This document shows, in pieces, positions 1-16,776 of a DNA stretch of 64,000 nt. The position numbers were made by a program, and so were the translations under genes. How positions within the stretch are numbered: the first letter of the stretch is position 1; each line of letters starts with the position of its first letter. Origin of the DNA: a virus (taxonomy: Duplodnaviria > Heunggongvirae > Uroviricota > Caudoviricetes); IMG/VR virus record IMGVR_UViG_3300045988_137643, positions 1 to 64,000 of that record. One strand, 5' to 3'. The notes under the pieces were generated by a model. It saw nothing but the letters and a program-made list of their open reading frames with translations, was not told the origin of the DNA and searched no databases.

Positions 1-20
1 CTAAACAACCATTCTTCACA

Positions 21-46
21 ATGCCCAGCGTATTGCTGGGCATTTT
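21..46 (+). terminator. rho-independent-type terminator hairpin
   Basis: GCCCAGC-GTATT-GCTGGGC stem-loop followed by TTTTC; duplicated at 891-916. Confidence 0.65.
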
Positions 47-83
47 CATATAGACGCAATCCCTTCTGATTTACTCAGCCCCT

Positions 84-98
84 AAAACAATTTGTTTT
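84..98. promoter_or_regulatory. 15-bp palindrome AAAACAA-T-TTGTTTT (operator family A)
   Basis: perfect inverted repeat; recurring upstream of early genes. Confidence 0.6.
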
Positions 99-140
99 CT
101 GCGTTCTATTATCAGTTAGAGTAACAGTATTAACAAAATA

Positions 141-848
141 ATGGAGCAAATTATGTCGATTGTTGATAAAGCTCATATGTTTGCCGTTGGAGTGTATGGT
201 GGTGTAGGTAAGAAGCGTAGATATACGGGGGAAGACTACGTTACACACCCAGTTTCTGTGCGTGAGATTGTTGCTTGGCACGGAGGCACTGTCGAAATGC
301 AGGCTGCTGCATTATTACATGGTGTTATTGAAGATACCCATATCACTATCGAAATGGTACGCGAGTATTTCGGGAATCGTATAGCTGAGATGGTACTGGC
401 GCTGGCAAACGTTGCCAAACCAGACGACGGCGATAGTCTTGCGAGATTCATTATTAATGTTCGCGAATTGCAAAAGACGTTGGATATGCAGACGCGAATG
501 ATTAAATTGGCCGACCTGTTGGACAATCTTACTGCTATTAAGCTGTGTGCACCTGGTTCCTCACCTATCTATTTTGCTGAAACAGAGCTTATGCTGGAAA
601 TGGTCTTTAACGGCAGGGCAATTGGCCCCGATGCTGGTGTTGTAGAATATTTAGAGAGTAAAGGCATTGAGCACGAATTATTAGTAAACGTACGAGCGGT
701 AGTGAATAAAGGCATATCTGACTTGAAGCCAGAGTACCGAACGCAATATGAATCCTATAAGGAGATGATTTGGCACAAATGGCGTCAATCAGAATATCAA
801 CATAGCGCGAACGTAACCTCCCATCCTGCAGCCGGATGCCGGTGCTAA
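141..848 (+). CDS. HD-domain protein with RelA/SpoT (p)ppGpp-hydrolase-like motifs; the canonical HD dyad reads HG
   Basis: ORF track; motifs HPVSVREIV and AALLHGVIEDT...FG..IAEMVLALANV resemble SpoT/Mesh1 hydrolase motifs; GGAG RBS precedes an alternative ATG at 153. Confidence 0.55.
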   Translation: MEQIMSIVDKAHMFAVGVYGGVGKKRRYTGEDYVTHPVSVREIVAWHGGTVEMQAAALLHGVIEDTHITIEMVREYFGNRIAEMVLALANVAKPDDGDSLARFIINVRELQKTLDMQTRMIKLADLLDNLTAIKLCAPGSSPIYFAETELMLEMVFNGRAIGPDAGVVEYLESKGIEHELLVNVRAVVNKGISDLKPEYRTQYESYKEMIWHKWRQSEYQHSANVTSHPAAGCRC

Positions 849-890
849 ACCTGGCCACCAGGTTAAGTAATTAAACAACCTCTCTTCGCA

Positions 891-916
891 ATGCCCGGCA
901 ACACGCCGGGCATTTT
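891..916 (+). terminator. rho-independent-type terminator after 141..848
   Basis: GCCCGGC-AACAC-GCCGGGC then TTTTC; compensatory base-pair change relative to copy at 21-46. Confidence 0.7.
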
Positions 917-953
917 CATATAGACACAATCCCTTCTGATTTACACAGTACCT

Positions 954-968
954 AAAACAATTTGTTTT
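954..968. promoter_or_regulatory. family A palindrome AAAACAA-T-TTGTTTT
   Basis: identical to 84-98; followed by GATAAT -10-like hexamer. Confidence 0.6.
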
Positions 969-1004
969 CTGCCTTTTGTTGTTAGAGATAATAAGCCACA
1001 TAAG

Positions 1005-1019
1005 AAAACAACTTGTTTT
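1005..1019. promoter_or_regulatory. family A palindrome AAAACAA-C-TTGTTTT
   Basis: second copy between -10-like hexamer and RBS of 1032..1331. Confidence 0.6.
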
Positions 1020-1031
1020 GGAGTGGTTGAA

Positions 1032-1331
1032 ATGTTGAACATTACCCAAGCCTACCAGGTGGCATTGATCAGTTCATCTCATACATCAGAGGAAGATGCT
1101 CGCCGATTCATGATCGCAAGCAATGAGCTGGATTGGGTTTCACAAATTGATGGCGGTTGTATTGTCCACGCCGGGTTACAGGATGATGTCTGGAAAGACG
1201 ACTTGCGTCGATATGGTATATCCGAAGGCGCGATTGCTAACATTCAGAAAGTACTTGATGTAGGCTTTGACTCTGTACATTTTGATTGTGGTGCGCCGGT
1301 CGTTGAAGGGCTTGAGTGCTGGAACTGGTAA
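1032..1331 (+). CDS. hypothetical early protein
   Basis: ORF track, start moved to ATG 1032 (GGAG upstream); preceded by the terminator-operator-promoter cassette. Confidence 0.45.
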   Translation: MLNITQAYQVALISSSHTSEEDARRFMIASNELDWVSQIDGGCIVHAGLQDDVWKDDLRRYGISEGAIANIQKVLDVGFDSVHFDCGAPVVEGLECWNW

Positions 1332-1738
1332 ATCTGCAAACATATTCAAACCGTTGATAATGGCGGTCACAATTTGATTCTTTTCTATAAGAATCCGTTG
1401 ATCGCCACTACTCCCCTTCCATGCCTGCAATCACATCCTTAAATATCAATAGGTTACAGTTGTTTATACCAATAAGAAAACAACTAAATAACAGATCAAC
1501 GAAACATCAACGCTTTCTCCCGATTTGGTCTAAAAAATTGACGTTTTCACACATCACTTCTTATACCCGTAATCCTACGCAGCAGACAGCTCCACAGCGT
1601 CCAATTTTCACCACAGACGACTCAACACACTACCAACAAAAACACACGCTCAAAATCGCTCCCGTTGCGTTACACAACCATATAAACAACTTATTTTCAG
1701 GCATAACAAAACAACTAAATAACACACATGCCATTCCC

Positions 1739-1802
1739 AAAAACAACCAACCTCTTTATGGCAGGCTACCGAAAAGACCCACCTCTTCTTCCCAGGCTAC
1801 CG
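1739..1802 (+). repeat. A+C-rich repeat element copy 1
   Basis: AAAAACAACCAACCTCT...CAGGCTACCG...ACCCACCTCTT...GGCTACCG; related copy at 4830-4881. Confidence 0.55.
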
Positions 1803-2408
1803 GATAACCAACCTAACTTTCACAGGCAATCCGAAAACATTCACACGCGCGATACCCACGACACGCCATTCCCCAAACAGCGAAGAAACACCAGAATCAC
1901 TGAAACCCCAACGAAGCCTGTAACCGCAAGGTTTCTCTCAATCCCAAAAGACACGAAACAGAACAATCACGGGAAACGCCATTACCCAATACACGAATAA
2001 CTACAAAAGCCTTTCACACTCCAGACAAACAACTCAAACACAATAACGAAAGGAATCGCCCACCTGCCATTACTCCATATACGGAGAAGAACAATCACCA
2101 AAACGACGAGAACACCCCATAGAAGAACCACCGCAAAACGAACGAAACCACATACACCGACAGAGAAAACAACACACCCAATTCACCAACAGAAATAGTC
2201 GCCGTATAGAACATTCTGGAAGGAGTGAGCATTAACGCCTATAGAGAGGTTGAGACAGATAAAACACGAAGAAAACACAACATGTATAGCGAAGAAGCCA
2301 GGTATGTATAAGTGGAGAGGGAAGGAGGGGTGTCGCCTCCTTTTTCGTATTTATTCAACTCCTGATTTTATCCCCCGTAACACCCCTACGGTCAGCCTTC
2401 GGTCCATA

Positions 2409-2549
2409 CAGGGAAAAGGCTGCATCCCGCTACAGAAACGGCTGGGTTGCCTTCGGGGAACGGCTGGAGGTTTTCAGGGAAACGGTCGAGTTGCCTGTGT
2501 GAATTTCGGGAAAAGGTTCGATGCCGGTTCAGGAACGGCGGCGTACCGG
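2409..2549. repeat. iteron-like array of about six degenerate 21-31-bp tandem units with core GGGAAA(A/C)GG
   Basis: units begin CAGGGAAAAGGCTG, GAAACGGCTGG, GGAACGGCTGG, GGGAAACGGTCG, GGGAAAAGGTTCG, GGAACGGCGG. Confidence 0.6.
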
Positions 2550-2902
2550 TATAGCGTGAGGGAGAGTTGCGACTGCCCACCTGTAATGTGCGGGAAGAAG
2601 AGAGGCGCTCACGTGCAGGCGAACTTACTTCCCGCTGGATTCCCTCTGAATGCCCAGCTACAGCGTAATTGTGCCAGACAGCCAGCGGGTCACAATCGAT
2701 TTCAGTAGGTTTTCGGGGAGAGGATTATTCTGCCCACCAGCCATCTTCGGCCACTAAATCAGAATAATGTAAAAAGTGTACTCGGTACTGAACCTGAAAA
2801 CTCACTGCCAAAACCACATTCACCGGAATAAAATCCTTTTTCGCCTATACGTTATTACGATAATAACACCAATAAGAAAACATGTTGTTTAAGGATTGCT
2901 TT

Positions 2903-3232
2903 ATGTTTGCACATATCGACATCAACCAAATTAAGAAATTGACTCAAAAAGAGTTTGACCAGTTCTGTGAGCTGGAAGGTTGGTCTTCCACTCTGATCAA
3001 TTCGCGGTGGGTGCTTGAGCTGATGACTCGTGATGACGCTCCTGCTTTGATGATTTGCGACATGGGTGAAGATGCTGACTTTATGGATATGAGCGAATTT
3101 TGTGTGGACACATACAACCGCAGCCAGAAGTACTACTTCACATGCGATAGCGAGAATGACGTGATTTCTAAGGTCTATCTTCACCTTGTCCAGCATTGGG
3201 ACGTTCAGGAGTTTCTTGAAGTATTCGCGTAA
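2903..3232 (+). CDS. hypothetical acidic early protein
   Basis: ORF track; ATG 2903 follows AAGGA RBS at 2891-2895; the track start at 2882 lies inside a palindromic element; D/E-rich product. Confidence 0.45.
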   Translation: MFAHIDINQIKKLTQKEFDQFCELEGWSSTLINSRWVLELMTRDDAPALMICDMGEDADFMDMSEFCVDTYNRSQKYYFTCDSENDVISKVYLHLVQHWDVQEFLEVFA

Positions 3233-3385
3233 CCTCAACCAAAGCCAGCAATGCTGGCTTAACTTCTCTGTGGCCGCAGGGAAGAACCCGCATATCGCTC
3301 ATGCGCCTGATCAATATGCTTTGTAGCCGTTTTCTTACTGGTATTATTTACGCCATTGAGAAAATAAGTTGTTTACGGAGTTGTG

Positions 3386-3697
3386 ATGAAAAAATCATTG
3401 GTTCTTGGTCTGGACAAAGACCAGAAGCGAAAAGAGAAGCCTGCGCTGGTTGCTCAATTAACTTTGCTGGACATCGTTGCCAATGGAACCTCTATTCGTC
3501 TGTTCCGTGAAACAGCGGTGTCTTTCGATAAAAACACCTTTACTCGTTATGTAATGAATGTTCGTCGCCAGCGTGGAAAAGGCTGGGTGGCATTTCAAAG
3601 AATGTGGCCGGAACATCAGCTCGAACTGGCTTTGATGGAAGTTAACCGCGTGGCCCAACAAGAAATTCAGAGAGCATCAGTGATGGCAATAGCCTGA
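3386..3697 (+). CDS. hypothetical protein
   Basis: ORF track; ATG 3386 after ACGGAG RBS; followed by terminator 3732-3759. Confidence 0.5.
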   Translation: MKKSLVLGLDKDQKRKEKPALVAQLTLLDIVANGTSIRLFRETAVSFDKNTFTRYVMNVRRQRGKGWVAFQRMWPEHQLELALMEVNRVAQQEIQRASVMAIA

Positions 3698-3731
3698 TAA
3701 TGTGCAAGTGGTAATTAGTCGACAGTACGAC

Positions 3732-3759
3732 AGCCCCGCCATCCTTACGGGGCTTTTTT
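3732..3759 (+). terminator. rho-independent-type terminator
   Basis: AGCCCCG...CGGGGCT stem followed by TTTTTT. Confidence 0.7.
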
Positions 3760-3764
3760 GTATT

Positions 3765-3780
3765 GTAAGTACATACTTAC
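3765..3780. promoter_or_regulatory. family B palindrome GTAAGTA-CA-TACTTAC
   Basis: 7-bp arms; immediately after terminator, upstream of 3824..4219. Confidence 0.55.
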
Positions 3781-3823
3781 GGTTATAAAATAGAAAAATA
3801 ACCAAGACACTACGGAGAGTGAA

Positions 3824-4219
3824 ATGACCGTTAAACGCGAAAAACTGACAGTTGATGTTTACTATGCCTCTGAAACTGCCGAAGGTAAGAATGTGGCAAA
3901 AATCACCGTTGTTACGTACAACACCGAAACTGGTGCCGAAGTACAGGCCAGTACGATCGTGCGTAAAGGTGATGCCTCCGGCGGCGAGTACGCGACTCAA
4001 TACCAGTCCATTCTCGATGCAACTGACCCGCTGCTGCTGAAAATCGAGAACTACTTCCGCCAGGTTGATGAAGAGGTGTTTGAAACCATGATGAGTATGG
4101 TTAATTCCGTATTCACCTCCAGCCTGAACACCAGCACCACCTGGATTGGCCAGTACGGTCTGCGTATTACCTCCGGCATTCCTGCTGACACCTTAATCCC
4201 TGAAAGCGTATTCGCTTAA
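3824..4219 (+). CDS. hypothetical protein
   Basis: ORF track; GGAGAG RBS; followed by terminator 4230-4256. Confidence 0.55.
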   Translation: MTVKREKLTVDVYYASETAEGKNVAKITVVTYNTETGAEVQASTIVRKGDASGGEYATQYQSILDATDPLLLKIENYFRQVDEEVFETMMSMVNSVFTSSLNTSTTWIGQYGLRITSGIPADTLIPESVFA

Positions 4220-4229
4220 TCCTCTTTAA

Positions 4230-4256
4230 ATGGCGCGTAAACCGCGCCATTTTCTT
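4230..4256 (+). terminator. rho-independent-type terminator
   Basis: TGGCGCG-TAAAC-CGCGCCA followed by TTTTCTT. Confidence 0.7.
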
Positions 4257-4263
4257 ATGCCCG

Positions 4264-4278
4264 ATAACAATTTGTTTT
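4264..4278. promoter_or_regulatory. family A palindrome (ATAACAA-T-TTGTTTT)
   Basis: one mismatch to consensus; same cassette context as 84-98 and 954-968. Confidence 0.55.
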
Positions 4279-4346
4279 CTGCCTTTATCTTACTGCGATA
4301 ATTACAACAACAAGAAAACAACGTGTTTATTAGGTGGTGAAATAAT

Positions 4347-4499
4347 ATGGAATACATTGTTACTGTCGCTTCGTCAGATCGGGAGTCGTTACTTGAGGCT
4401 ATCAGAAGCATGGAAAACATCATCATGTCAGAGCAGGAGCTTAATGGTTATCTTGAGATGGATGATTTTTCTATCAAAATGGAGGTGAAGAATGACTGA
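4347..4499 (+). CDS. small hypothetical protein (50 aa)
   Basis: ATG 4347 after AGGTGGTG RBS; not in ORF track (below size cut-off); 3' end overlaps the next start. Confidence 0.35.
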   Translation: MEYIVTVASSDRESLLEAIRSMENIIMSEQELNGYLEMDDFSIKMEVKND

Positions 4500-4773
4500 C
4501 TTCACCATTACCCCTAAAGCACAAAATGTATTTCTTGAATCATGGCTGGACTTGCCGGAAACAGAACAGCAAGAAATGGATCATGTGGATTATGACGAGC
4601 AGGTAAGCACGCGATTCTTCCACTTTGAGGGATGCGTTTACGACATTGCCGACTTCATGCGAGATGACCGCTTCCCTGAATGGCACGCAAGCTATCCACT
4701 AAACGCCTTTGCCATGCTGATGATCCGTGTGGATGATTCAGGGGATACCATCGACATCGGTCTGCTCCACTGA
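4492..4773 (+). CDS. hypothetical protein
   Basis: ORF track; overlaps upstream small ORF, suggesting translational coupling. Confidence 0.5.
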   Translation: MTDFTITPKAQNVFLESWLDLPETEQQEMDHVDYDEQVSTRFFHFEGCVYDIADFMRDDRFPEWHASYPLNAFAMLMIRVDDSGDTIDIGLLH

Positions 4774-4829
4774 ATAATAAGGTCACCAATGCTGGTGGCC
4801 TTAAATGACCATCCTGTTCCCCGCAGGCT

Positions 4830-4881
4830 AAAAACACCAACCTCTTACCTCCAGGCAACCGACAAACCCACCTGTTCCCGT
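4830..4881 (+). repeat. A+C-rich repeat element copy 2
   Basis: AAAAACACCAACCTCT...CAGGCAACCG...ACCCACCTGTT...GGCTACCG. Confidence 0.55.
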
Positions 4882-4943
4882 CCGGCTACCGCAACTTTCC
4901 ACTTTGACGCCTTATTCGTACAACGATAATTAACGCCAACAAG

Positions 4944-4958
4944 AAAACAATTTGTTAT
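4944..4958. promoter_or_regulatory. family A palindrome AAAACAA-T-TTGTTAT
   Basis: between GATAAT hexamer and RBS of 4978..5460. Confidence 0.55.
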
Positions 4959-4977
4959 TTACGATAAGGAATTAATC

Positions 4978-5460
4978 ATGAATTTTATCGCTACTGTAAA
5001 CGCACCCGCACATGGCAATATCGCTGTAACGTTCTCTGACATTGAAAAACGAGTACTTGGTGCATGGCGCGACAATGAGACGGTAGAACTGTCAGCACAA
5101 GAAAAATGCATTATTGCACGCGACATCATTGGCAATCGTCGTTACTCGCGGGTATTTGAGAAAGCGTATGTGGTAAATTCTGGATTCGGAACGTTCGTCT
5201 TTCCGGTGCGCTCCGGGCGATTCTGCCAGTCCAAGCTGATTGAGTTCGCTACGCAGATTTCGGTCTGGATTAAAACTCAATCGTCGTTCAAATTTTCCGA
5301 CGATGAAGCAGTATCGCAGGGGATGCGGATCGCCAACAATGCAATTAAATGCAAAAACATTACGTATACCGCTGGCGTTGATACATGGAAACTGTTTTGC
5401 GCTAACTTTATGTTGAATGTATACGCAAGCAACCGCATCCACATCCTTGATGGCGTGTAA
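4978..5460 (+). CDS. hypothetical protein
   Basis: ORF track; AAGGA RBS; operator palindrome 4944-4958 upstream; terminator 5468-5492 downstream. Confidence 0.55.
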   Translation: MNFIATVNAPAHGNIAVTFSDIEKRVLGAWRDNETVELSAQEKCIIARDIIGNRRYSRVFEKAYVVNSGFGTFVFPVRSGRFCQSKLIEFATQISVWIKTQSSFKFSDDEAVSQGMRIANNAIKCKNITYTAGVDTWKLFCANFMLNVYASNRIHILDGV

Positions 5461-5467
5461 CTGAGAA

Positions 5468-5492
5468 GAGGGCCAGAAACGGCCCTTTCTCT
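5468..5492 (+). terminator. terminator-like hairpin after 4978..5460
   Basis: GGGCC-AGAAAC-GGCCC followed by TTTCTC. Confidence 0.5.
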
Positions 5493-5507
5493 ATAGCCAC
5501 CAGCTGC

Positions 5508-5597
5508 CGCAGGGAAATTTTCAGAAACGGCGAGGAACGCATTCATGAGCCGACGGGAAACGGCCAGGATTTTTTCGGGAAACGGCTGCATTCGCCT
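5508..5597. repeat. second array of GGGAAACGG-type repeats
   Basis: CAGGGAAATTTTCAGAAACGGCG, CGGGAAACGGCCAGG, CGGGAAACGGCTGCAT; shares GGGAAA-GGCTGCAT with first array. Confidence 0.55.
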
Positions 5598-5997
5598 TTA
5601 TGTAGAAAAAACATCGGGAAGCTGGTGGAATCCAACCAGCGGTTGTCGGACAGGTGAGCGGGGAAAATTATGATGACTTTCGTCGCCTGAGACATCCAGA
5701 TTTCTTTCGTAGCATAATCACATACGTGATTAAGTGGTGTGATTATGTGAAAAATCACGCGCACATAATACGCGAGCGGATACGGAACAAAACGAAATGC
5801 CGATCCGCGCCGACAAATAAACGCGGATCATAAAGCAAGACTAAAAGCCAATGATTAACCATACTCTATAACGCAATATAACGCGTTTTAAGCGCGTTAA
5901 TGTGTTAAGTAATGGGTATGTACTGGTAAGGATATAAAAGCGCGTCTATGGCGTTATTTTGGTGCTTATTTTTATGTTGTTGGAGTGAGTTAAAGAC

Positions 5998-6026
5998 AAT
6001 AAAAAACGCGCCAATGATGGCGCGTT
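5998..6026 (-). terminator. minus-strand rho-independent-type terminator
   Basis: AACGCGCCA-ATGA-TGGCGCGTT; A-run on + strand gives U-run after the hairpin on minus strand. Confidence 0.6.
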
Positions 6027-6046
6027 ATGGTGGGAGTATTGGAAAC

Positions 6047-6071
6047 GAAAAAAGCGCCCATAGTGGGCGCT
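6047..6071 (-). terminator. minus-strand rho-independent-type terminator after 6077..6304
   Basis: AGCGCCCA-TAG-TGGGCGCT with U6 on the minus strand; hairpin sequence repeated at 6546-6566. Confidence 0.7.
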
Positions 6072-6076
6072 CGATT

Positions 6077-6304
6077 TTATTTATGTAAACTGATTTCAAA
6101 TCCCATTTCTACAAACACTTTTAACATTAAAAATATATCAGCGTCGTTCACGTCTGCTTTTTTTCGCTCCTGGTCGCTCAATAAGTCAATTTTGCGCGTC
6201 GTTTCATCTATAAGCTCAACAGATCCAGCGTAACCAGCGATCCCAGCAATATCATTAACACAATATTCATTGTGGACGTTAACGCCAGCGATAAGAACAA
6301 ACAT
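6077..6304 (-). CDS. hypothetical protein
   Basis: ORF track; AAGGAG RBS on minus strand; followed by tandem minus-strand terminators. Confidence 0.5.
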   Translation of the reverse strand: MFVLIAGVNVHNEYCVNDIAGIAGYAGSVELIDETTRKIDLLSDQERKKADVNDADIFLMLKVFVEMGFEISLHK

Positions 6305-6324
6305 GATTAAGCTCCTTAAAAAAA

Positions 6325-6528
6325 TTAAATAGAATTTTGAAGTTTTCCGATTAATGCGCTTAAACGTAAGTATTCACGTTTGCGCTTGCAATCTCGCTTG
6401 CTGTTAAGCAAATCAGAAAACGTAAAATTTAATTGGTCGCGTTGCGCGATCAAATCATCGATTAATTCCAGTTTATAAGCGCGATACTTTGCGCGATATT
6501 CCGCGCGGATCTTGTCATAGCTGACCAT
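6325..6528 (-). CDS. hypothetical protein
   Basis: ORF track 6325..6573 shortened to internal ATG 6528, which has an AAGGAG RBS; the first 15 codons of the track ORF are a hairpin also found at 6053-6071. Confidence 0.45.
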   Translation of the reverse strand: MVSYDKIRAEYRAKYRAYKLELIDDLIAQRDQLNFTFSDLLNSKRDCKRKREYLRLSALIGKLQNSI

Positions 6529-6576
6529 TTTTAAAGCTCCTTTAAAGCGCCCATAGTGGGCGCTTGATTCCATTAA

Positions 6577-7227
6577 TTACGCTTTGAAAGCATCAGCTAA
6601 ATAATTGTAGAAATCATTTTTAATGAAGCGATATTGCTGAGTACCAGCTTTTGCGCTCCCAGCTCCTTTGACTTTCTCAACAAGTCCGAGACGTTCGCAA
6701 AGATTGATCAACTGGTTGGCTTGAGTATAGCCAGCGTCCAATTTAATTTCGCACGCTTTTTTAGCTTCATTCATTAAATCGAAAACAGCGCCATTAGTGA
6801 ACGTGTCGATCTCGTCGTTAATCATATCGATTAAAGCGAATACACGAGATCCTGACATATCAGCGACGGAATAAACGCATTTACCAGCTTTAATGGATTT
6901 AACCAGATAAACCAGTTTTTCCAGTGAATAACTATTAGTCATAGCATCACGGAAAAATACTTCTGGCGCTTGTTTGCTTGCTTTAATCGCATAGTAGAAA
7001 ACAGAGCATAATTTTTCGTCTTCTACTGCGTTTACGACGTTGTTGATGAAGTAAGCAAGTTTAGTGGTCGCAGCTTGCATATTTGCTTTGTCTGCTTTAG
7101 TGTGCGTACCATTTTTATAATGTTCGTTATATGTTTGAGTTGCCAGATCTGCTTTTTCGCGCAGTTCATCGGATACAATGGAAGCAGCTTCAATGATGGA
7201 TTTTTTAGAAATGATAATGTTAGCCAT
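6577..7227 (-). CDS. hypothetical protein
   Basis: ORF track, 216 aa; AGGA RBS. Confidence 0.55.
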   Translation of the reverse strand: MANIIISKKSIIEAASIVSDELREKADLATQTYNEHYKNGTHTKADKANMQAATTKLAYFINNVVNAVEDEKLCSVFYYAIKASKQAPEVFFRDAMTNSYSLEKLVYLVKSIKAGKCVYSVADMSGSRVFALIDMINDEIDTFTNGAVFDLMNEAKKACEIKLDAGYTQANQLINLCERLGLVEKVKGAGSAKAGTQQYRFIKNDFYNYLADAFKA

Positions 7228-7465
7228 GATAATTTTTCCTTATGTAAATTTAAAATTTATTGTCGTTAGCGTCTTCGCTTTCGACGAGTTCAATTATCGA
7301 TACGCGAAAAAAGATTGCAAGTGTTTTTTTAAAATTTTTTGCAGGGATGAAAGTCCTAGAAATAAAAGCGAGATCGTCGAAGGTGTTCCCTAAATAAATA
7401 ATCGATTCCGGCTTTCGATCTTATATATATTTAGGTTATTTGATTTATAGATATAAAGAAGTGAT

Positions 7466-7498
7466 GTGAAAAATAATAACCGGACTTAGCCGGTTATT
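7466..7498 (-). terminator. minus-strand rho-independent-type terminator after 7511..7819
   Basis: AATAACCGG-ACTTAG-CCGGTTATT 9-bp stem; U-rich tract on minus strand. Confidence 0.65.
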
Positions 7499-7510
7499 AA
7501 CCTTATAGAT

Positions 7511-7819
7511 TTATTGAACAGACTCTACAGCCTTACGATTGGTGTCAAATAGCGCATCAACGAACTGTGCCGATGACTCGCTAGATTCGCAATCCAACAT
7601 TGCCCGTTCTTCATTTGCCACTTTCTTACACAGTTCCACATTCTCACCTATCGCTTTTCCTGCTTTTACGGCTGCCGAAAATTGATACATGCAAACTGAT
7701 ACATTCTGAGACGTTGAGCACACGTCATTCATCAGCGACTGAATGACAGGCTTATAGTCCATTGCATTTGCCGCAACTGAGCAAAGTAAAAATAATGGTG
7801 GTAACAATATCGATTTCAT
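7511..7819 (-). CDS. secreted small Cys-containing protein
   Basis: N-terminal signal peptide MKSILLPPLFLLCSVAANA with AxA cleavage site; minus-strand terminator directly downstream. Confidence 0.55.
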   Translation of the reverse strand: MKSILLPPLFLLCSVAANAMDYKPVIQSLMNDVCSTSQNVSVCMYQFSAAVKAGKAIGENVELCKKVANEERAMLDCESSESSAQFVDALFDTNRKAVESVQ

Positions 7820-7822
7820 AAC

Positions 7823-8347
7823 TCAAAAAGGCAAAATTCGCTCAACCCAATCGAACAAAACAACTATTTTTCTACCGTTCTCGACACGTAGTGTAACCTG
7901 ACAAGCATCTGCGCCTGCTGACACCCCCTCAATTTCACGGCCATCCGCCATGTACACCCTTATAGATTTGTTTGCTTTGTAGGCTTGGTTGCAAATTGCA
8001 AAAAAATCGCGGCGTGATGGCCGATTATCGACATAATCAGGGTGAACTGTTAGTCGACCTTTGAAATCGTGAGCGATACTGTCAACCACACCTGATTCAA
8101 TTGTACTAATGCGTTCAAGTGGGAGCCTTATGCGATTTTCTTTATCAAAAGGGGCTGGGCAAAGGTCAACTTTGTTACGAGATGGCATGAGGCCATAAAC
8201 GTACATGCAAAACGCCTGACCATCTTCGAGAGTGGCCCTTACAGGAATTTGTTCTCTGCGCCAGAACATCAGTAGTTTTTCAACGTTAGTGTAATCTCGA
8301 GGCCAGACTTCTGCTGGCACACCGTAGGTGATGTCTTTCGTCGTCAT
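7823..8347 (-). CDS. hypothetical protein
   Basis: ORF track 7823..8386 shortened to Met 14 (8347) to remove overlap with the upstream lipoprotein gene. Confidence 0.5.
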   Translation of the reverse strand: MTTKDITYGVPAEVWPRDYTNVEKLLMFWRREQIPVRATLEDGQAFCMYVYGLMPSRNKVDLCPAPFDKENRIRLPLERISTIESGVVDSIAHDFKGRLTVHPDYVDNRPSRRDFFAICNQAYKANKSIRVYMADGREIEGVSAGADACQVTLRVENGRKIVVLFDWVERILPF

Positions 8348-8351
8348 ATCA

Positions 8352-8771
8352 TTATAAAGTGGTTGGCAATATATCCATTGTACCATCCCAGGTAGTGAAA
8401 ACCCGATATGTTTTCGCGTCGCCTTGCTTTAGTTTTATTTCTCGCTCCATCCTGGAGGGGTTAAATGCGCAAAGACCTGAACTTTCAATTGATGTCCCAA
8501 CGATCCAATCTCCTTCATTAAGATAGAAAGTTGCTTTTTCACCAGGTTCCAATTTTGCTGCCGTTTCTCCATTGATGAATATAGAAGCGTTACATCCAGA
8601 ACCAACCAGCCCTTTGTCTCTAACTATTGTTAGACTAGACTCATGTGGTGTTTGATATTTAAATGTTCTGCTTTGAGGTGCATACTTTGCCTTTGAAACA
8701 GATATAGATGAAGATGAACACCCAATTAGTGATGTGGCTAGTGTTAGAATAATTAGGTTTGTTGCTTTCAT
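8352..8771 (-). CDS. lipoprotein
   Basis: signal peptide with lipobox LIGC (MKATNLIILTLATSLIGC). Confidence 0.6.
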   Translation of the reverse strand: MKATNLIILTLATSLIGCSSSSISVSKAKYAPQSRTFKYQTPHESSLTIVRDKGLVGSGCNASIFINGETAAKLEPGEKATFYLNEGDWIVGTSIESSGLCAFNPSRMEREIKLKQGDAKTYRVFTTWDGTMDILPTTL

Positions 8772-8798
8772 ATTTGTCTGGCTATGATTAATGGATGG

Positions 8799-9341
8799 TT
8801 ACACGTTAACTTGGGTTCTATTGTAAATATCTATTAAGAGGTCGTCCCTTTTTATATCTCCGCAGATTTTGTTGAAATTTAATTCGCCTGATATTATTCC
8901 TTCATTGTATTTTTCGATGAAATCTTTCAATGCGAGATGATTCTTAAAGAGAAACGAAAATCCATAGGACGAAGTGCTATCGTTTATCAGTTTTTGAGCA
9001 TTTGGGTAATCGTATAAGTTTGAATGCAACTCTAATTTACCTGGAGCTACGCCGACACAGGATTTCATAATGGAGAACAGTCTTGATATATCATAGGGAT
9101 AAAAGATAATACCGCAATTTGTCTTGGTACCTTCAATATCCTTTACGTATATATAGTGCTCATAACGATCTTTGCGCGAAGCCTTTAGTTTATATTTGAT
9201 GAGTTTGTGCTCTCCTTTTTGAGAAGATGTTAGGTACGCCTGCTTTTCTAAACAAGACTGCTTTGATTTACAATAGATATGAACACATTCCTTTATTCGC
9301 CTTGCACTTAAGTAATTACTATCAATGTCAAGTACACCCAT
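8799..9341 (-). CDS. hypothetical protein, first gene of A+T-rich island
   Basis: ORF track, 180 aa; visibly A+T-rich coding sequence; CRP-like site and a 16-bp palindrome in its upstream region. Confidence 0.5.
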   Translation of the reverse strand: MGVLDIDSNYLSARRIKECVHIYCKSKQSCLEKQAYLTSSQKGEHKLIKYKLKASRKDRYEHYIYVKDIEGTKTNCGIIFYPYDISRLFSIMKSCVGVAPGKLELHSNLYDYPNAQKLINDSTSSYGFSFLFKNHLALKDFIEKYNEGIISGELNFNKICGDIKRDDLLIDIYNRTQVNV

Positions 9342-11500: not shown

Positions 11501-11518
11501 GTGGATTGTAGCAATAAA

Positions 11519-12199
11519 ATGGATGTAAAAATCACGATTTTGCAGGTTGATGTTGCCAACCTTCGCCCGAATACCTGGAACACCAATTCGGTTGGTGCGC
11601 AGAATTTTGAAAAACTGAAAGGTTCTATCGAAAAATTGGGCTTTTTTAAGCCAATTTTGGCTCGTGAACTTGAAGATGGATGTTTTGAAATCCTCGGCGG
11701 CGAACATCGCTGGCGTGCTGCTATTGAGCAAGGAATTTCAACGGTTCCGGTGCTTTCTGTGGGCAAAATTAGCGATGTCGTGGCTAAACAGATGTCACTG
11801 GTGGACAACGAGCGATACGGTGAAGACGACCAAATCGCATTGCAACGCTTCATTGAAGAAATTCAGTCAGAACTTGACTATCAACTGTCTGAAATCGCCC
11901 CGTATGACGACGAAATCTCGATGGTTTTAGCAAAAGAGGCGGCAATCGACCTTGAAGCACTGGAGGCGTTGTCTCGTGGTAGTGATGAGCCTGTCGATAC
12001 CGACAAACGAGAGAAAACCGAACGTGTGGGTGCGGAACATCAGACCATGCGCTTCAAAGTAACTTTCGATGCGTCAGATCGTGTTGCAGAAACCATAAAA
12101 AACATCATCAAAGAGCAGGCTATTAACACCGGTAATGAAATGGAGAACGCTGGTGAGGCTCTGGTGTGGCTGGTCGACTACTACAAGGAGCGTATGTAA
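11519..12199 (+). CDS. ParB N-terminal-domain (ParB/Srx fold) protein
   Basis: ParB box GGEHRWRAA; start moved to ATG 11519; palindrome 11483-11500 upstream. Confidence 0.7.
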   Translation: MDVKITILQVDVANLRPNTWNTNSVGAQNFEKLKGSIEKLGFFKPILARELEDGCFEILGGEHRWRAAIEQGISTVPVLSVGKISDVVAKQMSLVDNERYGEDDQIALQRFIEEIQSELDYQLSEIAPYDDEISMVLAKEAAIDLEALEALSRGSDEPVDTDKREKTERVGAEHQTMRFKVTFDASDRVAETIKNIIKEQAINTGNEMENAGEALVWLVDYYKERM

Positions 12200-12867
12200 T
12201 GACCAAAAAGTTTGAAATCGTATATCGCGACCCGGCAGATCTTATTCCCTATGAGATGAATGCCAAAAAGCATGATGAACAGCAGATCCGAGATCTGGCC
12301 GCAGCCATTAAAAAGCGCGGGTTTGACCAGCCAATTACGGTCGATAAGAACGACGTAATTATTACTGGCCACGGCCGCCGTGAGGCTGCAATTTTTGCTG
12401 GACTTGAGCGCGTACCGGTTATTGTTCGCGATGATCTCAGTGATGACGAGGTTCGTGCGAAGCGCCTTGAAGATAACCGACTTGCCAGCATTGATTACGA
12501 TGCAATTAAGCTACAGAAAGAGCTTGAGTCGCTTGTTCTGGACGATATCGAGGTTTTCGGCTTTGAAGAGCGTGAGTTGAATGTTCTCGTTGGCAGCATG
12601 ACAGAAGAAATGGACACCGACTCGCTAGTTATCGATCTTGGCGAAGAAACTAAACGACAGAAGGATGAACACACCGAGATCAGTCGTGAAGTTGCAGCGG
12701 AAGAAGTACGTGTTGTCGACGTATTGGGCTTTAAAACGCTCCCTGCTGGCTCTGCCATTGTTGTTGGTGATTTGCTTGCCCACATGGAAGAAATGACGGG
12801 AGAAAGCGGGGTAGACGCATTTGTGGCATATGCGGAGAAGATCTCTTCCGGGGAGATGGCTGCATGA
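12199..12867 (+). CDS. second ParB N-terminal-domain protein
   Basis: motif ITGHGRREAA; start ATG 12199 overlaps the previous stop (TAATG) with AAGGAG RBS. Confidence 0.7.
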   Translation: MTKKFEIVYRDPADLIPYEMNAKKHDEQQIRDLAAAIKKRGFDQPITVDKNDVIITGHGRREAAIFAGLERVPVIVRDDLSDDEVRAKRLEDNRLASIDYDAIKLQKELESLVLDDIEVFGFEERELNVLVGSMTEEMDTDSLVIDLGEETKRQKDEHTEISREVAAEEVRVVDVLGFKTLPAGSAIVVGDLLAHMEEMTGESGVDAFVAYAEKISSGEMAA

Positions 12868-13529
12868 GCAAATACATCATCAACGTATCGTTTCAGACAC
12901 GCGTAAATAAAACCACGCGCACGTTGGAAATCGCTGAGTCGTTCGGGCTTGGCCTGGACGAAAAAGAGTGGACGCTTTACGACAATCTGGAGCTGGAAGT
13001 GAAGCAGGGCGATGTGGTGTACATCACCGGCCAATCCGGTTCCGGCAAATCCGTTGTGCTGCGCGAGTTGCAACGACAGATGAAGGATGAAGGGCTGTCT
13101 GTAGCCTCCATCGATGATTTTACCTTCGATAATGAGGTTAACGTCATCGATCAGTTGGGCAAAACGACCAGTGATGCGCTTGGGTTGTTATCTATGGCTG
13201 GTCTGAACGATGCATATCTGTTTGTTCGCAAGCCTTCTGAAATGTCAGACGGCCAGAAATATCGTCTCAAGATTGCCAAACTGATTGAGTCAGGCGCTAA
13301 AGTGTGGGCTGCTGACGAGTTCGGCGCTGTTCTCGACCGTGTAACCGCTCAGGTTGTGGCGTCTAACCTCCAGCGTGCCGCTCGAAAGGTTGGTGCGACG
13401 GTAATGGTGGCGACGACTCACGAAGACCTGAAGAACGCGCTGCGCCCGGATATGCAGATCACCAAGCACTACAAAGAACGCGTGAAGGTGGAATATCACA
13501 ATGGTAGTCACGATGAGGTCCATTCATGA
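12864..13529 (+). CDS. P-loop NTPase
   Basis: Walker A GQSGSGKS, Walker B-like VWAADEFG; ATGA start/stop overlap with upstream gene. Confidence 0.65.
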   Translation: MSKYIINVSFQTRVNKTTRTLEIAESFGLGLDEKEWTLYDNLELEVKQGDVVYITGQSGSGKSVVLRELQRQMKDEGLSVASIDDFTFDNEVNVIDQLGKTTSDALGLLSMAGLNDAYLFVRKPSEMSDGQKYRLKIAKLIESGAKVWAADEFGAVLDRVTAQVVASNLQRAARKVGATVMVATTHEDLKNALRPDMQITKHYKERVKVEYHNGSHDEVHS

Positions 13530-14416
13530 CGGACATCATCATTAAACGCTACCGCCCTGAAGAGTTTCCGCGTCATCTGGACTTTCTGGAGCGAATGACT
13601 GTTACAAAGGGAACTGTAGAGGACTGGCACGCTCTTAAGTCGCTTCACTACAAAACAGACGGCAAACCTTTCGCGCCAACTTACTATCGCTGCGAACTTG
13701 ATGACCGTCTGGTGGGCGTCGTGGTTATGGCTTACCCGAAACTACTGTTGGCACCTCGCCACCGCATGTTTCCTAAGTTGAAACCAACCACTAATACCAC
13801 CGTGGCTAACCAGTACTGGGGTCGGTACGTGAATAACAACTTTGCGGTGATCAGTCGCTCAGTTGTGGATACTCAGTATCGTGGCGTAGGCGTCTCTTAT
13901 CGAATGATTAACCTGGTTAGCAGGATGCATGACCGGCCAATCATTGAGATCCAGTCCTCGATGAGCAAATACAATCCCTTCGCCATGAAAGCAGGGTTTA
14001 AGTTCATCCGCCCTGAGCGACCGAAGAGCTATGAAAGTGCACTGCGTGTATTCCAGCGCCATTTCCGTTCCGACCCGGGTGATAACGAGGCGATCGTCAA
14101 AGAGTTGTTCGCAATGAGCGAGTCTCGTCGTCGCCGTGCACTGCGTGATCTGGTGGCGGACTACCACAAGAACAGTTCCCTGGCAAAAGCTGGGCGGAAT
14201 CGTGGCACGACGATTCAGGACATTGCCGACAGTCTGGTGGACGAGGCCAGCATTGTGAAGCTGCTCAAGGACATTCACAACCTGAGCTTTACGTCTCCGT
14301 TATATGGTGTGTATCGAAACCCTGACTTTGGTCGTCGACTGCCTGACACGCTGCCACTGCTGGCATTCGACAAACAACCTTTGGATAAACCGTTGGAAAT
14401 TGCTTTACCGGCATAA
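13526..14416 (+). CDS. GNAT-fold acetyltransferase-like protein
   Basis: QYRGVGVS (Q/RxxGxG/A motif A) and NPFAMKAGFKFI motif-B-like segment; ATGA overlap with upstream ATPase gene. Confidence 0.5.
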   Translation: MTDIIIKRYRPEEFPRHLDFLERMTVTKGTVEDWHALKSLHYKTDGKPFAPTYYRCELDDRLVGVVVMAYPKLLLAPRHRMFPKLKPTTNTTVANQYWGRYVNNNFAVISRSVVDTQYRGVGVSYRMINLVSRMHDRPIIEIQSSMSKYNPFAMKAGFKFIRPERPKSYESALRVFQRHFRSDPGDNEAIVKELFAMSESRRRRALRDLVADYHKNSSLAKAGRNRGTTIQDIADSLVDEASIVKLLKDIHNLSFTSPLYGVYRNPDFGRRLPDTLPLLAFDKQPLDKPLEIALPA

Positions 14417-14887: not shown

Positions 14888-15520
14888 ATGACGGTCGAAA
14901 AAGACGAGGTAAAAACTCGCCTGACACCAGCGGAGTGGGCCGAAGCTGAAGCCAAATGGACGTCAGGCGAATATACACTCTCAAAGCTGGAGGAAGAGTA
15001 CGGCATTCGTCGTGAAACACTCTCCAGACATTTCAAAAAGCGAGGATTAGAGAAAGGCGCGGACTCTGTTGGGAAGATGGTTCGTGAGTCTCTTAAATCT
15101 GACGCAGAGCTTCGCGCTAAAGCCCGTGCGGAAAAGATAGAAGAACGTCGTACACGTTATGACGGCTGGGCGTATGCGTTGGGGCAGATGGTGATGGTCG
15201 AAGTCACTACGGCCAAACGTGATGGTAAGCCTTTAGGGGCGATTGAGGATTCTCTCAAGAGCTTACAGAGAGCCAGTAATACCCTTGCAAAATGCTTTGA
15301 AGTTTCGTCCAAAGCATTGGGCATGGATCATGCGGAAAATGACGAGGAAGAAATTCCGAACCTGGTATTTGGTGAGCTTACGCCTTCCCAGGTGGCGAAA
15401 TTACGTCAGGAAGACGACGAGCCTGAAATCATCGATGACGAATTGCTTGAGACGTTGGAAGAAGAAGCTCTAAGCGAATTTGATGCGACAGATGATGGAA
15501 GTGAAGGGGAGGACGAATAA
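14888..15520 (+). CDS. terS: terminase small subunit (putative)
   Basis: position immediately upstream of the large terminase with ATGA-type overlap; HTH-like N-terminus and highly acidic C-terminus. Confidence 0.6.
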   Translation: MTVEKDEVKTRLTPAEWAEAEAKWTSGEYTLSKLEEEYGIRRETLSRHFKKRGLEKGADSVGKMVRESLKSDAELRAKARAEKIEERRTRYDGWAYALGQMVMVEVTTAKRDGKPLGAIEDSLKSLQRASNTLAKCFEVSSKALGMDHAENDEEEIPNLVFGELTPSQVAKLRQEDDEPEIIDDELLETLEEEALSEFDATDDGSEGEDE

Positions 15521-16776
15521 TGGCAATCCCATCCTCGCTCAGTCTTGTGCAACTGCATTCTGGACAGATGAAAGTCTTCCAGTCTCCGCATCGATTTAAA
15601 GTTGTTTGTGCTGGTCGACGCTGGGGAAAATCCCGGTTGTCGATCTCCACTATTATTCGTGCGGCGGCAAAGGAAAAAAAGCAAAGGGTCTGGTATGTCG
15701 CTCCTACTTACCAGATGGCTCGCCAGATTTTGTGGGACGATCTACAGGAAGTTCTGCCTCGTAAGTGGGTTAGGAAAAAGAACGACACCACGATGACAAT
15801 CGTGTTGAAGAACGGTTCGGAGATCGCCCTCAAAGGTGCTGATAAGCCTGACACTCTGCGCGGCGTAGCGTTGCATTTTGTAGTGCTTGATGAATTTCAG
15901 GATATGAAGGCTGACACCTGGTACAAGGTGTTACGACCTACTCTTTCATCGACACGCGGCGGTGCACTGATCATTGGTACGCCAAAAGGCTTCTCGGAAT
16001 TTCACAAACTGTGGACTATAGGCCAGAACGTAGAGCTGCAAAGAAAGGGACAGTGGAAGAGCTGGCAGTTTGTAACTGCTGATTCTCCGTTTGTGCCTAC
16101 GGCGGAAATTGAAGCTGCTAAGAACGATATGGACCCTAAATCGTTCGCTCAGGAGTACCTGGCCAGCTTTGAAAATATGTCCGGGCGCGTTTACTACCCG
16201 TTCGATCGTAACGTGCATGTAAAACCGCTTCAGTTCAACCCTCGGTTGCCTATATGGGTAGGGCAGGACTTCAACATTGACCCGATGTCTTCCGTAATTT
16301 TGCAACCTCAGCCAAACGGTGAGCTATGGGCAATTGATGAACTGGTACTCTTTTCCTCTAACACGGCAGAGGTTTGTGATGAGCTTGAGAGACGCTTCTG
16401 GCGCTGGAAATCACAGATAACGGTATTTCCAGATCCGGCAGGTGCTTATCGCCAACATGCTCGCGGGGAGTCTGACGTCGACATATTCAAAGAGAAGGGA
16501 TTCTTACGTGTCGATTATTCGAAAAAGCACCCGCCAATTGCGGATCGTGTTAATGCTGTTAACCGAATGCTGATGACCGCATCTGGAGATATCCGGTTGT
16601 ATATCGATCCGAAGTGCAAGCATTTGATTGATTCACTGGAAAAAGTCATCTACAAGCCTGGAACACGAGATATGGATAAGACAGGTGGCATTGAGCATAG
16701 TGCAGACGCATTGGGCTATCCAGTACATCGTAGGTATCCAGTCAAAAACCGTGTTATTCTTGGTGGCTCTCGATAG
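15520..16776 (+). CDS. terL: terminase large subunit
   Basis: N-terminal ATPase with deviant Walker A CAGRRWGKS and VVLDEFQD Walker B; followed by portal gene. Confidence 0.85.
   Translation: MAIPSSLSLVQLHSGQMKVFQSPHRFKVVCAGRRWGKSRLSISTIIRAAAKEKKQRVWYVAPTYQMARQILWDDLQEVLPRKWVRKKNDTTMTIVLKNGSEIALKGADKPDTLRGVALHFVVLDEFQDMKADTWYKVLRPTLSSTRGGALIIGTPKGFSEFHKLWTIGQNVELQRKGQWKSWQFVTADSPFVPTAEIEAAKNDMDPKSFAQEYLASFENMSGRVYYPFDRNVHVKPLQFNPRLPIWVGQDFNIDPMSSVILQPQPNGELWAIDELVLFSSNTAEVCDELERRFWRWKSQITVFPDPAGAYRQHARGESDVDIFKEKGFLRVDYSKKHPPIADRVNAVNRMLMTASGDIRLYIDPKCKHLIDSLEKVIYKPGTRDMDKTGGIEHSADALGYPVHRRYPVKNRVILGGSR

Follow-up and report, generated by a model that had tools for sequence, protein, structure and literature searches.

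Phased direct-repeat arrays around a Chi-rich early-gene island in a phage-plasmid, and their possible role in packaging

Two repeat arrays and the genes between them

The window, i.e. the whole 64,000-nucleotide stretch of viral DNA that was analysed, belongs to a phage-plasmid of the SSU5/pHCM2/pMT1 family and is 97% identical to phage Cyrano. Inspection of the sequence identified two arrays of direct repeats on the + strand that share the core (C/G)RGGGAAACGG(C/T). An earlier note on this DNA had placed such arrays at 2409-2549 and 5508-5597, with about six units in the first and three or four in the second, and both the positions and the counts were confirmed. The same applies to its claim that a longer string containing GGGAAA is common to both, since GGGAAA(A/C)GGCTGCAT is present at 2411-2425 and at 5577-5591. 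The features are as follows, with unit spacing measured from the RAAMGG anchor.

2409..2549, + strand: array 1, six direct-repeat units with core (C/G)RGGRAAMGG(C/T); anchor spacing 22, 22, 22, 31, 22 bp
2409: array 1 unit CAGGGAAAAGGC
2433: array 1 unit CAGAAACGGC
2454: array 1 unit CGGGGAACGGC
2475: array 1 unit CAGGGAAACGGT
2507: array 1 unit CGGGAAAAGGT
2530: array 1 unit CAGGAACGGC
2550..2566, + strand: array 1 tail, TATAG...GAGGGAGAG, paralogous to the array 2 tail; candidate processing site
5508..5597, + strand: array 2, a partial unit and three full units; anchor spacing 33, 22 bp
5510: array 2 partial unit CAGGGAAAT
5522: array 2 unit CAGAAACGGC
5554: array 2 unit CGGGAAACGGC
5576: array 2 unit CGGGAAACGGC, an exact second copy 22 bp on
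5598..5640, + strand: array 2 tail, with conserved GCCTTTATGTAGAAAA, a degenerate unit and an overlapping Chi site
5615: the degenerate unit, CGGGAAGCTGG, within the array 2 tail

Half of the 20 matches to GRAAMGGY in the window lie inside or directly beside the arrays, and all ten of these are on the + strand; SRGGRAAMGG occurs six times in the window against 1.36 expected. The density of array 1 (six anchors per 150 nt) was reached in none of 300 composition-preserving block shuffles. Array 2 alone, with four anchors in 150 nt, was not significant by count in the shuffle test, and its validation therefore comes from its conservation. Neither array was called by Tandem Repeats Finder because the units are too degenerate. 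The complete Cyrano genome contains no clusters of the core beyond these two arrays. The last two units and the common tail align between arrays 1 and 2, which on sequence grounds are paralogous modules with a module-plus-tail design.

The arrays had also been described as flanking early genes, and an island of six small genes does lie between them, in the following setting.

2250..2708, + strand: mechanical ORF over array 1, not a gene
2319..2345, + strand: terminator-like hairpin closing an A+C-rich segment, 64 bp upstream of array 1; position conserved in relatives
2837..5460, + strand: early-gene island of six small genes
2882-3232, 3383-3697, 3824-4219, 4347-4499, 4492-4773 and 4978-5460, + strand: the island genes
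5463..5492, + strand: terminator hairpin that follows the 160-aa gene and precedes array 2 by 16 bp
5641..6076, no strand: remaining convergent non-coding region past array 2
5713-5747: inverted repeat after array 2
5866-5900: TATAACGC repeats after array 2
6005-6026 and 6052-6072, - strand: two tandem terminators

A near-identical promoter/5'UTR module recurs at 2837, 3321, 4275 and 4909. The gene content and length of the island differ among relatives, the distance from array to array ranging from about 1.5 to 5 kb. Its small genes, their common promoter module and the hypervariable content make the island look like a first-entering module for early functions or host takeover. Each array lies directly 3' of a terminator hairpin and is therefore shielded from read-through transcription; the stem of the hairpin at 5463..5492 is retained in relatives via one-sided changes. 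The ORF at 2250-2708 had been suspected of being an artefact of the repeats, and we reached the same conclusion because its reading frame and length vary in relatives, i.e. the stop-free stretch over array 1 runs from 207 to 507 nt in differing frames, and one relative has a 22-nt unit deletion there.

Conservation and helical phasing across relatives

The earlier note had held that absence of the repeats from relatives would speak against a function. Both arrays are instead conserved in the family, being kept across E. coli, Salmonella, Klebsiella and Enterobacter members; in Yersinia pMT1 array 2 is retained and array 1 is absent. In relatives the cores of the arrays stay invariant; their spacers differ, and gains and losses involve entire units. 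The two CGGGAAACGGC copies of array 2 are nearly invariant across the family, and the motif is unchanged even beside neighbouring proteins of only about 50-60% identity. More than 700 PLSDB plasmids carry the arrays, including S. Typhi pHCM2 and Y. pestis pMT1. Of the 65 loci recovered by scanning viral contigs for a pair of cores at 22-bp spacing, all except three are family homologues, and the scan therefore provides no independent context for the motif.

In 88 distinct relatives the unit spacing was 22 bp in 160 cases, the other spacings being 21/23, 31, 33-34, 42-44, 52-53 or 66 bp. These are multiples of about 10.5-11 bp and so place the units on one helix face, a phasing that, judged from the spacing, would be expected for cooperative protein binding to one face of duplex DNA. 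A 48-49-bp spacing in 18 sequences involves a motif copy within the terminator loop, and one divergent relative has irregularly spaced units (24-35 bp apart).

The phasing also bears on whether the arrays might act as RNA, e.g. as a sponge or target for the FljA-like Sm-type protein (7823-8386) or for CsrA. All units are on one strand, the CCG...CGG flank of many could put GGGAAA in a hairpin loop, a FljA homologue is encoded 2.3 kb away, and the 12-mer TGAGCCGACGGG beside an array 2 unit is also found in the E. coli fliC leader. We nevertheless consider an RNA-level element very unlikely, as spacing at multiples of a helical turn has no rationale in RNA and each array follows a terminator and is preceded by no promoter-like site. 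There was no Rfam match, a scan of positions 1-9000 at a permissive threshold giving chance-level hits only, and RNAalifold, run on 14 diverse copies of each array, returned covariation terms of -1.28 and +0.24 kcal/mol, with no covarying structure except the terminator hairpin. The likeness to the fliC leader falls within the shuffled-leader range: in local alignments to the window the E. coli, Salmonella and Enterobacter fliC leaders scored 24-27 against 22-33 after shuffling, and we place no weight on a FljA target. A CsrA sponge was rejected, since GGA is missing from several units and the units are spaced according to the DNA helical repeat.

Chi sites, replication and partition

The window contains 18 copies of Chi (GCTGGTGG), where 1.6 would be expected. 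Among octamers of the Cyrano genome Chi ranks third in abundance, and the densest 4-kb Chi window of that genome is the inter-array segment. In all relatives examined, too, Chi is most densely clustered in this segment, with both orientations present. Four sites are placed as follows.

2734..2741, - strand: Chi about 185 bp past array 1, active against rightward RecBCD
4791..4798, + strand: Chi within a terminator hairpin
5497..5504, - strand: Chi about 25 bp ahead of the first full array 2 unit
5621..5628, + strand: Chi directly past array 2

Over ten loci, 60 Chi sites were counted in 37.8 kb inside the inter-array segment and 26 in 132 kb outside it; those in the segment are in both orientations and in coding, terminator and intergenic contexts. 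A bidirectional cluster of this kind is the expected sign of exposure to DNA ends from both directions, and lambdoid phages provide documented cases of Chi clusters at the genome terminus, beside the packaging site (PMC12315714). The cluster is modest in E. coli lineages (4-5 sites). The site at 5497..5504 is found in all relatives examined except Yersinia pMT1, and past array 2 the E. coli and Klebsiella lineages have one Chi, at differing alignment positions. Alternatively, recombination that shuffles the island could have given rise to the cluster.

The earlier note's proposal of a plasmid-type origin was not borne out. Iterons of the plasmid RepA (IncFIB) replicon, serving as origin or copy-control sites, would resemble the arrays in a generic way, in that both are direct repeats, about 17-22 bp long, that recur roughly every 22 bp. 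In Cyrano, however, RepA (IncFIB type) is about 34 kb from the arrays and has iterons of its own, CTCTCTAYAGTGGATA, which lie on either side of its gene at 21-22-bp spacing and are adjoined by a DnaA-box-like TGTGGATAA. The GGGAAACGG arrays share no sequence with these iterons and contain no copy of CTCTCTAYAGTGGATA. The arrays are adjoined neither by a cognate rep gene nor by DnaA boxes with an AT-rich unwinding element; for TTWTNCACA the window has 5 matches compared with 7.2 expected, and near the arrays there is a single weak site, at 5746. We therefore regard the arrays as almost certainly not RepA iterons.

A lytic or secondary origin, with the arrays as iterons for a phage initiator, is a different case. 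Two iteron clusters kilobases apart are found in satellite phage P4, as the ori and crr sites. Like classical iterons, the arrays are direct repeats phased at 22 bp; they are also insulated from transcription, a complex, multi-repeat and partly AT-rich non-coding region follows array 2, the Chi sites flanking array 2 (- left, + right) fit a bidirectional origin, and genes for a helicase, a primase, a polymerase and T4-like recombination proteins are present in the phage itself. We still think such an origin unlikely. About 40 kb separates the arrays from the helicase and primase genes, and no initiator-like gene lies beside either array: the adjoining proteins have no Pfam match, and the predicted model of the 160-aa protein, although confident, matches no known fold. 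DnaA boxes are not enriched near the arrays, the cumulative GC skew is uninformative as it tracks transcription direction, and the Chi orientations in the island are mixed, with no single switch point.

A partition centromere for the small ParA (45078-45746) and its 119-aa partner appears decidedly improbable. Centromeres of small-ParA systems are typically arrays of short direct repeats, no direct-repeat array was seen directly flanking the par genes, and most family members have kept the small ParA. Against this, the par genes (45.1-46.1 kb) are about 40 kb from the arrays, and two arrays around a Chi-rich early island are not a centromere layout. Furthermore, pMT1, whose partition system we take to be P1-type ParAB, keeps array 2, and Yersinia is not among the top genera listed with the small ParA. 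The arrays also do not resemble ParB-parS sites, as their units are asymmetric direct repeats, with no palindromic parS and no par operon beside them.

Packaging genes, proposed genome ends and known systems

Candidate proteins for reading the arrays are encoded in an operon further to the right.

11501..12867, + strand: two ParB_N-domain proteins, at the head of an operon ending in the terminase genes; candidate array binders
14888..15520, + strand: small-terminase-like DNA-binding protein (phrog_867); candidate array reader
15520..16776, + strand: large terminase (Pfam Terminase_6N and Terminase_3)

The AlphaFold2 model of the small-terminase-like protein has an N-terminal helix-turn-helix (HTH) and a long helical hairpin; it had no Pfam Nu1 match, and no Nu1 structure was among its fold matches. 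The large terminase is about 25% identical to the terminases of T5-like and Jersey-like phages, and because it is equally close to the latter its phylogeny is not diagnostic. Two ABC-type ATPases are encoded together with the two ParB_N proteins just upstream of the terminase genes, and all family members retain this set; searches of the module with PADLOC and NCBIfam yielded no informative assignment. As the ParB-like genes head an operon ending in terminase genes, reading the arrays as ParB-binding sites may be equivalent to reading them as packaging sites.

The interpretation that we favour, tentatively and as something short of probable, is that the arrays serve the packaging machinery as putative binding sites on duplex DNA and delimit an end segment that is terminally redundant. 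It draws on (i) the bidirectional Chi cluster, (ii) the confined early island, (iii) the transcriptional insulation and (iv) the paralogous module-plus-tail design. In this model both arrays would be bound, as double-stranded DNA, by one conserved sequence-specific protein, probably phage-encoded, i.e. the small-terminase-like protein, possibly in concert with the ParB-like proteins from its operon. The packaging machinery would bind an array and cut roughly 35-185 bp downstream, leaving the left virion end just past array 1 and the right end just past array 2, so that the ~3-kb island would be present at both ends; the packaged genome would thus have the island as its terminally redundant end segment, as we infer. 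On injection the early genes would enter first and be transcribed inward, Chi in both orientations would convert incoming RecBCD at either end, and recombination between the two island copies would circularise the DNA into the plasmid.

Several observations run against the packaging reading. Most cos and pac sites adjoin or lie inside terminase genes, whereas the arrays lie 9-12 kb from them, the end of array 2 being 9.3 kb upstream of the small-terminase-like gene. The absence of array 1 from pMT1, the irregular spacing in the divergent relative, the modest E. coli Chi cluster and the undiagnostic terminase phylogeny count in the same direction, as does the single-copy island in phage records, none of which has it twice; assemblies normally collapse terminal repeats. 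In the literature searched, nothing relevant was found on SSU5-family termini, packaging signal or lytic origin, or on the pMT1 repeats.

The same layout could also serve silencing, if a repressor or the ParB-like proteins bound both arrays and looped or spread to silence the early genes in the plasmid state. Two like-oriented multi-site arrays bracket exactly the early promoters, cooperative one-face binding would suit looping, and the ParB_N proteins and ABC-type ATPases are universal in the family. However, the arrays overlap none of the early promoters, which share an operator-like element of their own (AAGAAAACA...TGTTT), the ParB-like genes are in an operon ending in terminase genes and not in a lysogeny module, and the bidirectional Chi cluster is left unexplained. 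We rate boundary or silencing arrays as rather unlikely. A more speculative scheme, which we hold to be improbable, joins the two ideas: the arrays would be loading sites for a packaging-associated complex of the two ParB_N proteins and two ABC-type ATPases, which in the plasmid state would bridge the arrays and both insulate and silence the island, and on induction would hand the DNA to terminase for cutting beside each array. The outcome would be an exact terminal repeat, whose Chi load would then drive a RecBCD/RecA-dependent return to the circular plasmid.

In clinical Enterobacteriaceae, phage-plasmids of the SSU5/pHCM2 type are found very commonly, some of them with resistance genes. If the arrays define packaged ends, they would provide a concrete, testable map of the switch between plasmid and virion, explain the Chi cluster, and identify cis-elements for building or disabling transducing particles. 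A role as ParB/ATPase loading sites would link plasmid-type ParB biology to the formation of phage genome ends. If they prove to be a lytic origin or silencing system instead, they would still be the main conserved cis-elements of the family lacking an assignment.

Among known systems, iteron origins (P1 oriR/incA, RepFIB, R6K; P4 ori/crr) have direct repeats at two-turn spacing, and P1 oriR/incA and P4 ori/crr also have two clusters kilobases apart; unlike these, the arrays have no adjacent initiator gene or DnaA boxes, and the RepA iterons are elsewhere. As with ParB/KorB-type sites, proteins with a ParB_N domain are encoded close by and a higher-order complex could be nucleated on multi-site arrays, but the arrays are asymmetric direct repeats and not palindromic parS, with no par operon adjoining.

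The lambda cosB R sites and the SPP1 and P1 pac sites likewise consist of several short asymmetric repeats, there read by a packaging protein near the processing site, and in Chi-rich lambdoid phages Chi is clustered toward the terminus (PMC12315714), as it is toward the presumed terminus here. Unlike the lambda, SPP1 and P1 sites, the arrays are two, 1.5-5 kb apart, in place of one compact site, and are 9-12 kb from the terminase genes. The R sites of lambda contain CGTTTCC, which the complementary-strand core CCGTTTCCC shares; this stays a lead because the small-terminase-like protein has no Nu1 match. T5-like phages have long exact terminal repeats carrying pre-early genes. The segment here is about 3 kb compared with about 10 kb in T5 and SPO1, its terminal repeat is a predicted one, and the element is temperate and kept as a plasmid. 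As in T5 and SPO1, small early genes with their own promoters lie at the presumed genome end, and the large terminase is distantly related to T5-like ones (about 25% identity).

Two repeat arrays on either side of an early-gene island

The annotated neighbours of the two repeat arrays show that this DNA, as judged from sequence, belongs to an SSU5/pHCM2/pMT1-type phage-plasmid of about 108 kb. Identity of the window is 93-96% with other E. coli phage-plasmids and about 78% with those of Klebsiella. The arrays are set among the following features:

2319-2345, + strand: terminator hairpin directly 5' of array 1
2409-2549, + strand: array 1, six units
2837-2891, 3321-3375, 4275-4329 and 4909-4956: four copies of a 50-nt promoter/5'UTR module, a -10-like GATAAT/TATTAT and then AAGAAAACAnnnTGTTT
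1002, 1474, 2269, 9857 (- strand), 43143 and 45026: further copies of this module
Between the arrays, + strand: six small genes driven by the four module copies, with no family assigned in a domain search
5463-5492, + strand: terminator hairpin directly 5' of array 2
5508-5597, + strand: array 2, three full units and one partial, with a further degenerate unit at 5615
From array 2 onwards: 620-bp convergent non-coding region that begins with the array and includes more small repeats and two - strand terminators
Right of the non-coding region, - strand: block for an FljA-like protein and a UvsW-like helicase
Right of that block: operon with genes for two ParB_N proteins (11501-12867), a pair of ABC-type ATPases, a putative DNA-binding protein of 88 aa (14426-14692), a small-terminase-like protein (14888-15520) and the large terminase

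An earlier note had placed degenerate repeats with a shared core at these two sites, and reading the sequence bore out both the positions and the core common to the arrays, GGGAAA(A/C)GGCTGCAT. Measured between RAAMGG anchors within the core, unit spacing is 22, 22, 22, 31 and 22 bp in array 1 and 33 and 22 bp in array 2. Half of the window's matches to GRAAMGGY (10/20) fall within or directly beside the arrays, none of 300 block shuffles attained six anchors in 150 nt, and the complete Cyrano genome has only two such clusters, i.e. the arrays themselves. Tandem Repeats Finder detected neither array. The last two units of each array and a common tail (TATAG/TGTAG, then GAGGGAGA-like sequence) align with each other, and the arrays are therefore paralogous modules. 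The ORF across array 1, already suspected of being an artefact of the repeats, is not a gene, as neither its frame nor its length is conserved. The length and gene content of the island between the arrays differ among relatives.

Conservation of the arrays and their possible functions

The earlier note held that absence of the repeats from relatives would speak against a function; by BLAST, 716 PLSDB plasmids have the array 1 region and 766 have that of array 2, both with Klebsiella, Escherichia, Enterobacter, Salmonella, Citrobacter and Cronobacter as hosts; for array 2 the hosts also take in Yersinia, with 55 plasmids. In alignments the spacers diverge while the cores are invariant, and whole units are gained or lost (e.g. 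PhiR41_1 has a 22-nt deletion). A pattern scan of viral contigs gave 65 loci, almost all of them family homologues. Since these loci were chosen by two exact cores, the claim of conservation is based on BLAST-retrieved and protein-anchored loci (L076, L077 and L186), in which the motif is kept although the adjacent proteins are just 50-60% identical. Separately, GGGAAACGG units are clustered in both orientations 3' of a gene in L029 (about 1977-2200, reverse-complement strand), a high-GC viral contig that is unrelated; this may be a coincidence or a convergent binding-site array.

Over 88 distinct sequences the unit spacing was 22 bp in 160 cases and otherwise 21/23, 31, 33-34, 42-44, 52-53 or 66 bp, i.e. 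helical-turn multiples. This favours a protein on one face of duplex DNA and disfavours an RNA element, which we consider very improbable: an Rfam search gave no match for the arrays and RNAalifold found covarying structure in neither. A lytic origin made of the two iteron clusters is unlikely, and we give similarly low weight to boundary or silencing arrays bound by a repressor or by the ParB-like proteins. Less likely again is a centromere for the small ParA, which is conserved in the family but seemingly missing in Yersinia, which the genera listed do not include.

The suggestion of a plasmid-type origin did not survive. The RepA (IncFIB) gene of Cyrano, at 60.6-61.7 kb, is about 34 kb distant from the arrays and has its own, different iterons (CTCTCTAYAGTGGATA) on both sides at 21-22-bp spacing, with TGTGGATAA adjoining; no DnaA-box enrichment was found near the arrays. 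Given this distance and the different iteron type, it is scarcely conceivable that the arrays are RepA iterons. Around RepA, beyond the window (Cyrano 60.1-62.35 kb; L006 10100-12350), more than 20 CTCTCTAYAGTGGATA-type iterons occur at 21-22-bp spacing, together with DnaA-box-like TGTGGATAA and GGATCT repeats, and this region is, on its sequence features, the true plasmid origin.

Chi sites and candidate packaging ends

The window has 18 copies of Chi (GCTGGTGG) where 1.6 are expected, and the Cyrano genome, in which Chi is the third commonest octamer, has 25; it is more than 10-fold over-represented genome-wide, beyond the inter-array segment too. No other 4-kb stretch of Cyrano is as dense in Chi as that segment. 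Ten loci, drawn from E. coli, Salmonella, Klebsiella, Enterobacter and relatives further off, together had 60 Chi sites in 37.8 kb inside the segment versus 26 in 132 kb outside, with roughly balanced orientations. The sites are not copies of one module, because their contexts include coding, terminator-hairpin and intergenic DNA. A - strand Chi lies just upstream of array 2 in all relatives examined except Yersinia pMT1, and a + strand Chi lies just downstream of it in the E. coli and Klebsiella lineages, at alignment positions that differ between them. Several Chi sites form part of terminator hairpins of the type GGCCACCA...TGGTGGCC.

RecBCD must enter from a DNA end for Chi to act. A segment in need of active Chi in both directions would be expected if both termini of a linear genome carried it. 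In lambdoid phages, Chi clusters at the terminus beside the packaging site (PMC12315714). We tentatively infer that the arrays are candidate recognition sites for the packaging machinery, bounding a terminally redundant early-gene segment; of the readings considered we favour this one, as possible rather than probable. A cut about 35-185 bp 3' of each array would make 2734 (- strand) the first Chi inside the left end and 5621 (+ strand) the first inside the right end, and the early genes, reading inward, would be first into the cell. Early genes also enter first in T5-like phages, to whose large terminase the one here is distantly related. Against packaging sites count the distance of the arrays from the terminase genes and the ambiguous terminase phylogeny. 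Cyrano has low coverage in the public LF82 virome run ERR8973296.

The small-terminase-like protein has a predicted fold with an N-terminal HTH followed by a long helical hairpin, for which a fold search gave no significant match and none to lambda Nu1. Directly upstream of the terminase genes, the module of two ParB_N-domain proteins and two ABC-type ATPases (11501-14416) is conserved; PADLOC gave it weak matches only (methyltransferase N-terminal region, mad3/mad8).

Neighbouring elements and comparison with known arrays

The promoter/5'UTR module probably serves genome-wide as a promoter-operator or in translational control: its AAGAAAACA has 9 copies in the window versus 1.55 expected, and no octamer is commoner in Cyrano than its AGAAAACA (29 copies). 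Left of array 1, about 900 nt (1400-2300) are A+C-rich with extreme strand composition (GC skew to -0.58, AT skew to +0.63), starting with an early-promoter-like element (about 1460-1490), ending at the 2319-2345 hairpin and containing GCCATTMC...ACGGAGAAGAACA-type repeats. This stretch, which has counterparts in pHCM2 (L004 about 4400-5260) and L076, may encode a non-coding RNA, load Rho or bind Hfq through an (ARN)n tract, and the ORFs called within it (1421-1807, 1728-2000) look doubtful.

A second repeat family, ACCNACCTnnTTnnCnCAGGCWACCG, occurs as three copies at 28-30-bp spacing at 1745-1830 and 4808-4888, one site adjoining the promoter of a 160-aa gene on its upstream side, and also in pHCM2 (L004 about 4770-4860). 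After array 2 (5713-5747 and 5866-5960) there are a 10-bp perfect inverted repeat, CATAATCACA / TGTGATTATG, and TATAACGC/TAAAACGC repeats; L076, a distant relative, has at least seven tandem 8-nt units (CTAAAYKG) at 8732-8811. The tail-fibre gene region holds two arrays (39252-39631 and 39960-40311) of about three 120-nt tandem copies (71-72% matches). With 22 copies, ATAAGTAA is one of the commonest octamers in Cyrano, and copies of it lie in AT-rich inverted repeats just 3' of the parA operon (46139-46290); this may be the real centromere or an operator.

The product of the - strand gene at 7823-8386 is homologous over its full length to FljA, the flagellin repressor (PF03614, E 4e-84), and about 34% identical to the presumed Salmonella FljA sequence; its C-terminal half looks Sm/Hfq-like. 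All family members have it, S. Typhi pHCM2 and Y. pestis pMT1 among them. Beside one unit of array 2, a 12-mer is shared with the E. coli fliC leader, but mimicry of that leader was rejected, as three fliC leaders scored within the shuffled range against the window.

No account of these arrays turned up in the literature open to search. As predicted protein-binding sequences, they belong with known phased direct-repeat arrays; what is unusual is a kilobase-separated pair around an early island loaded with Chi, in a family of phage-plasmids that is very widespread.
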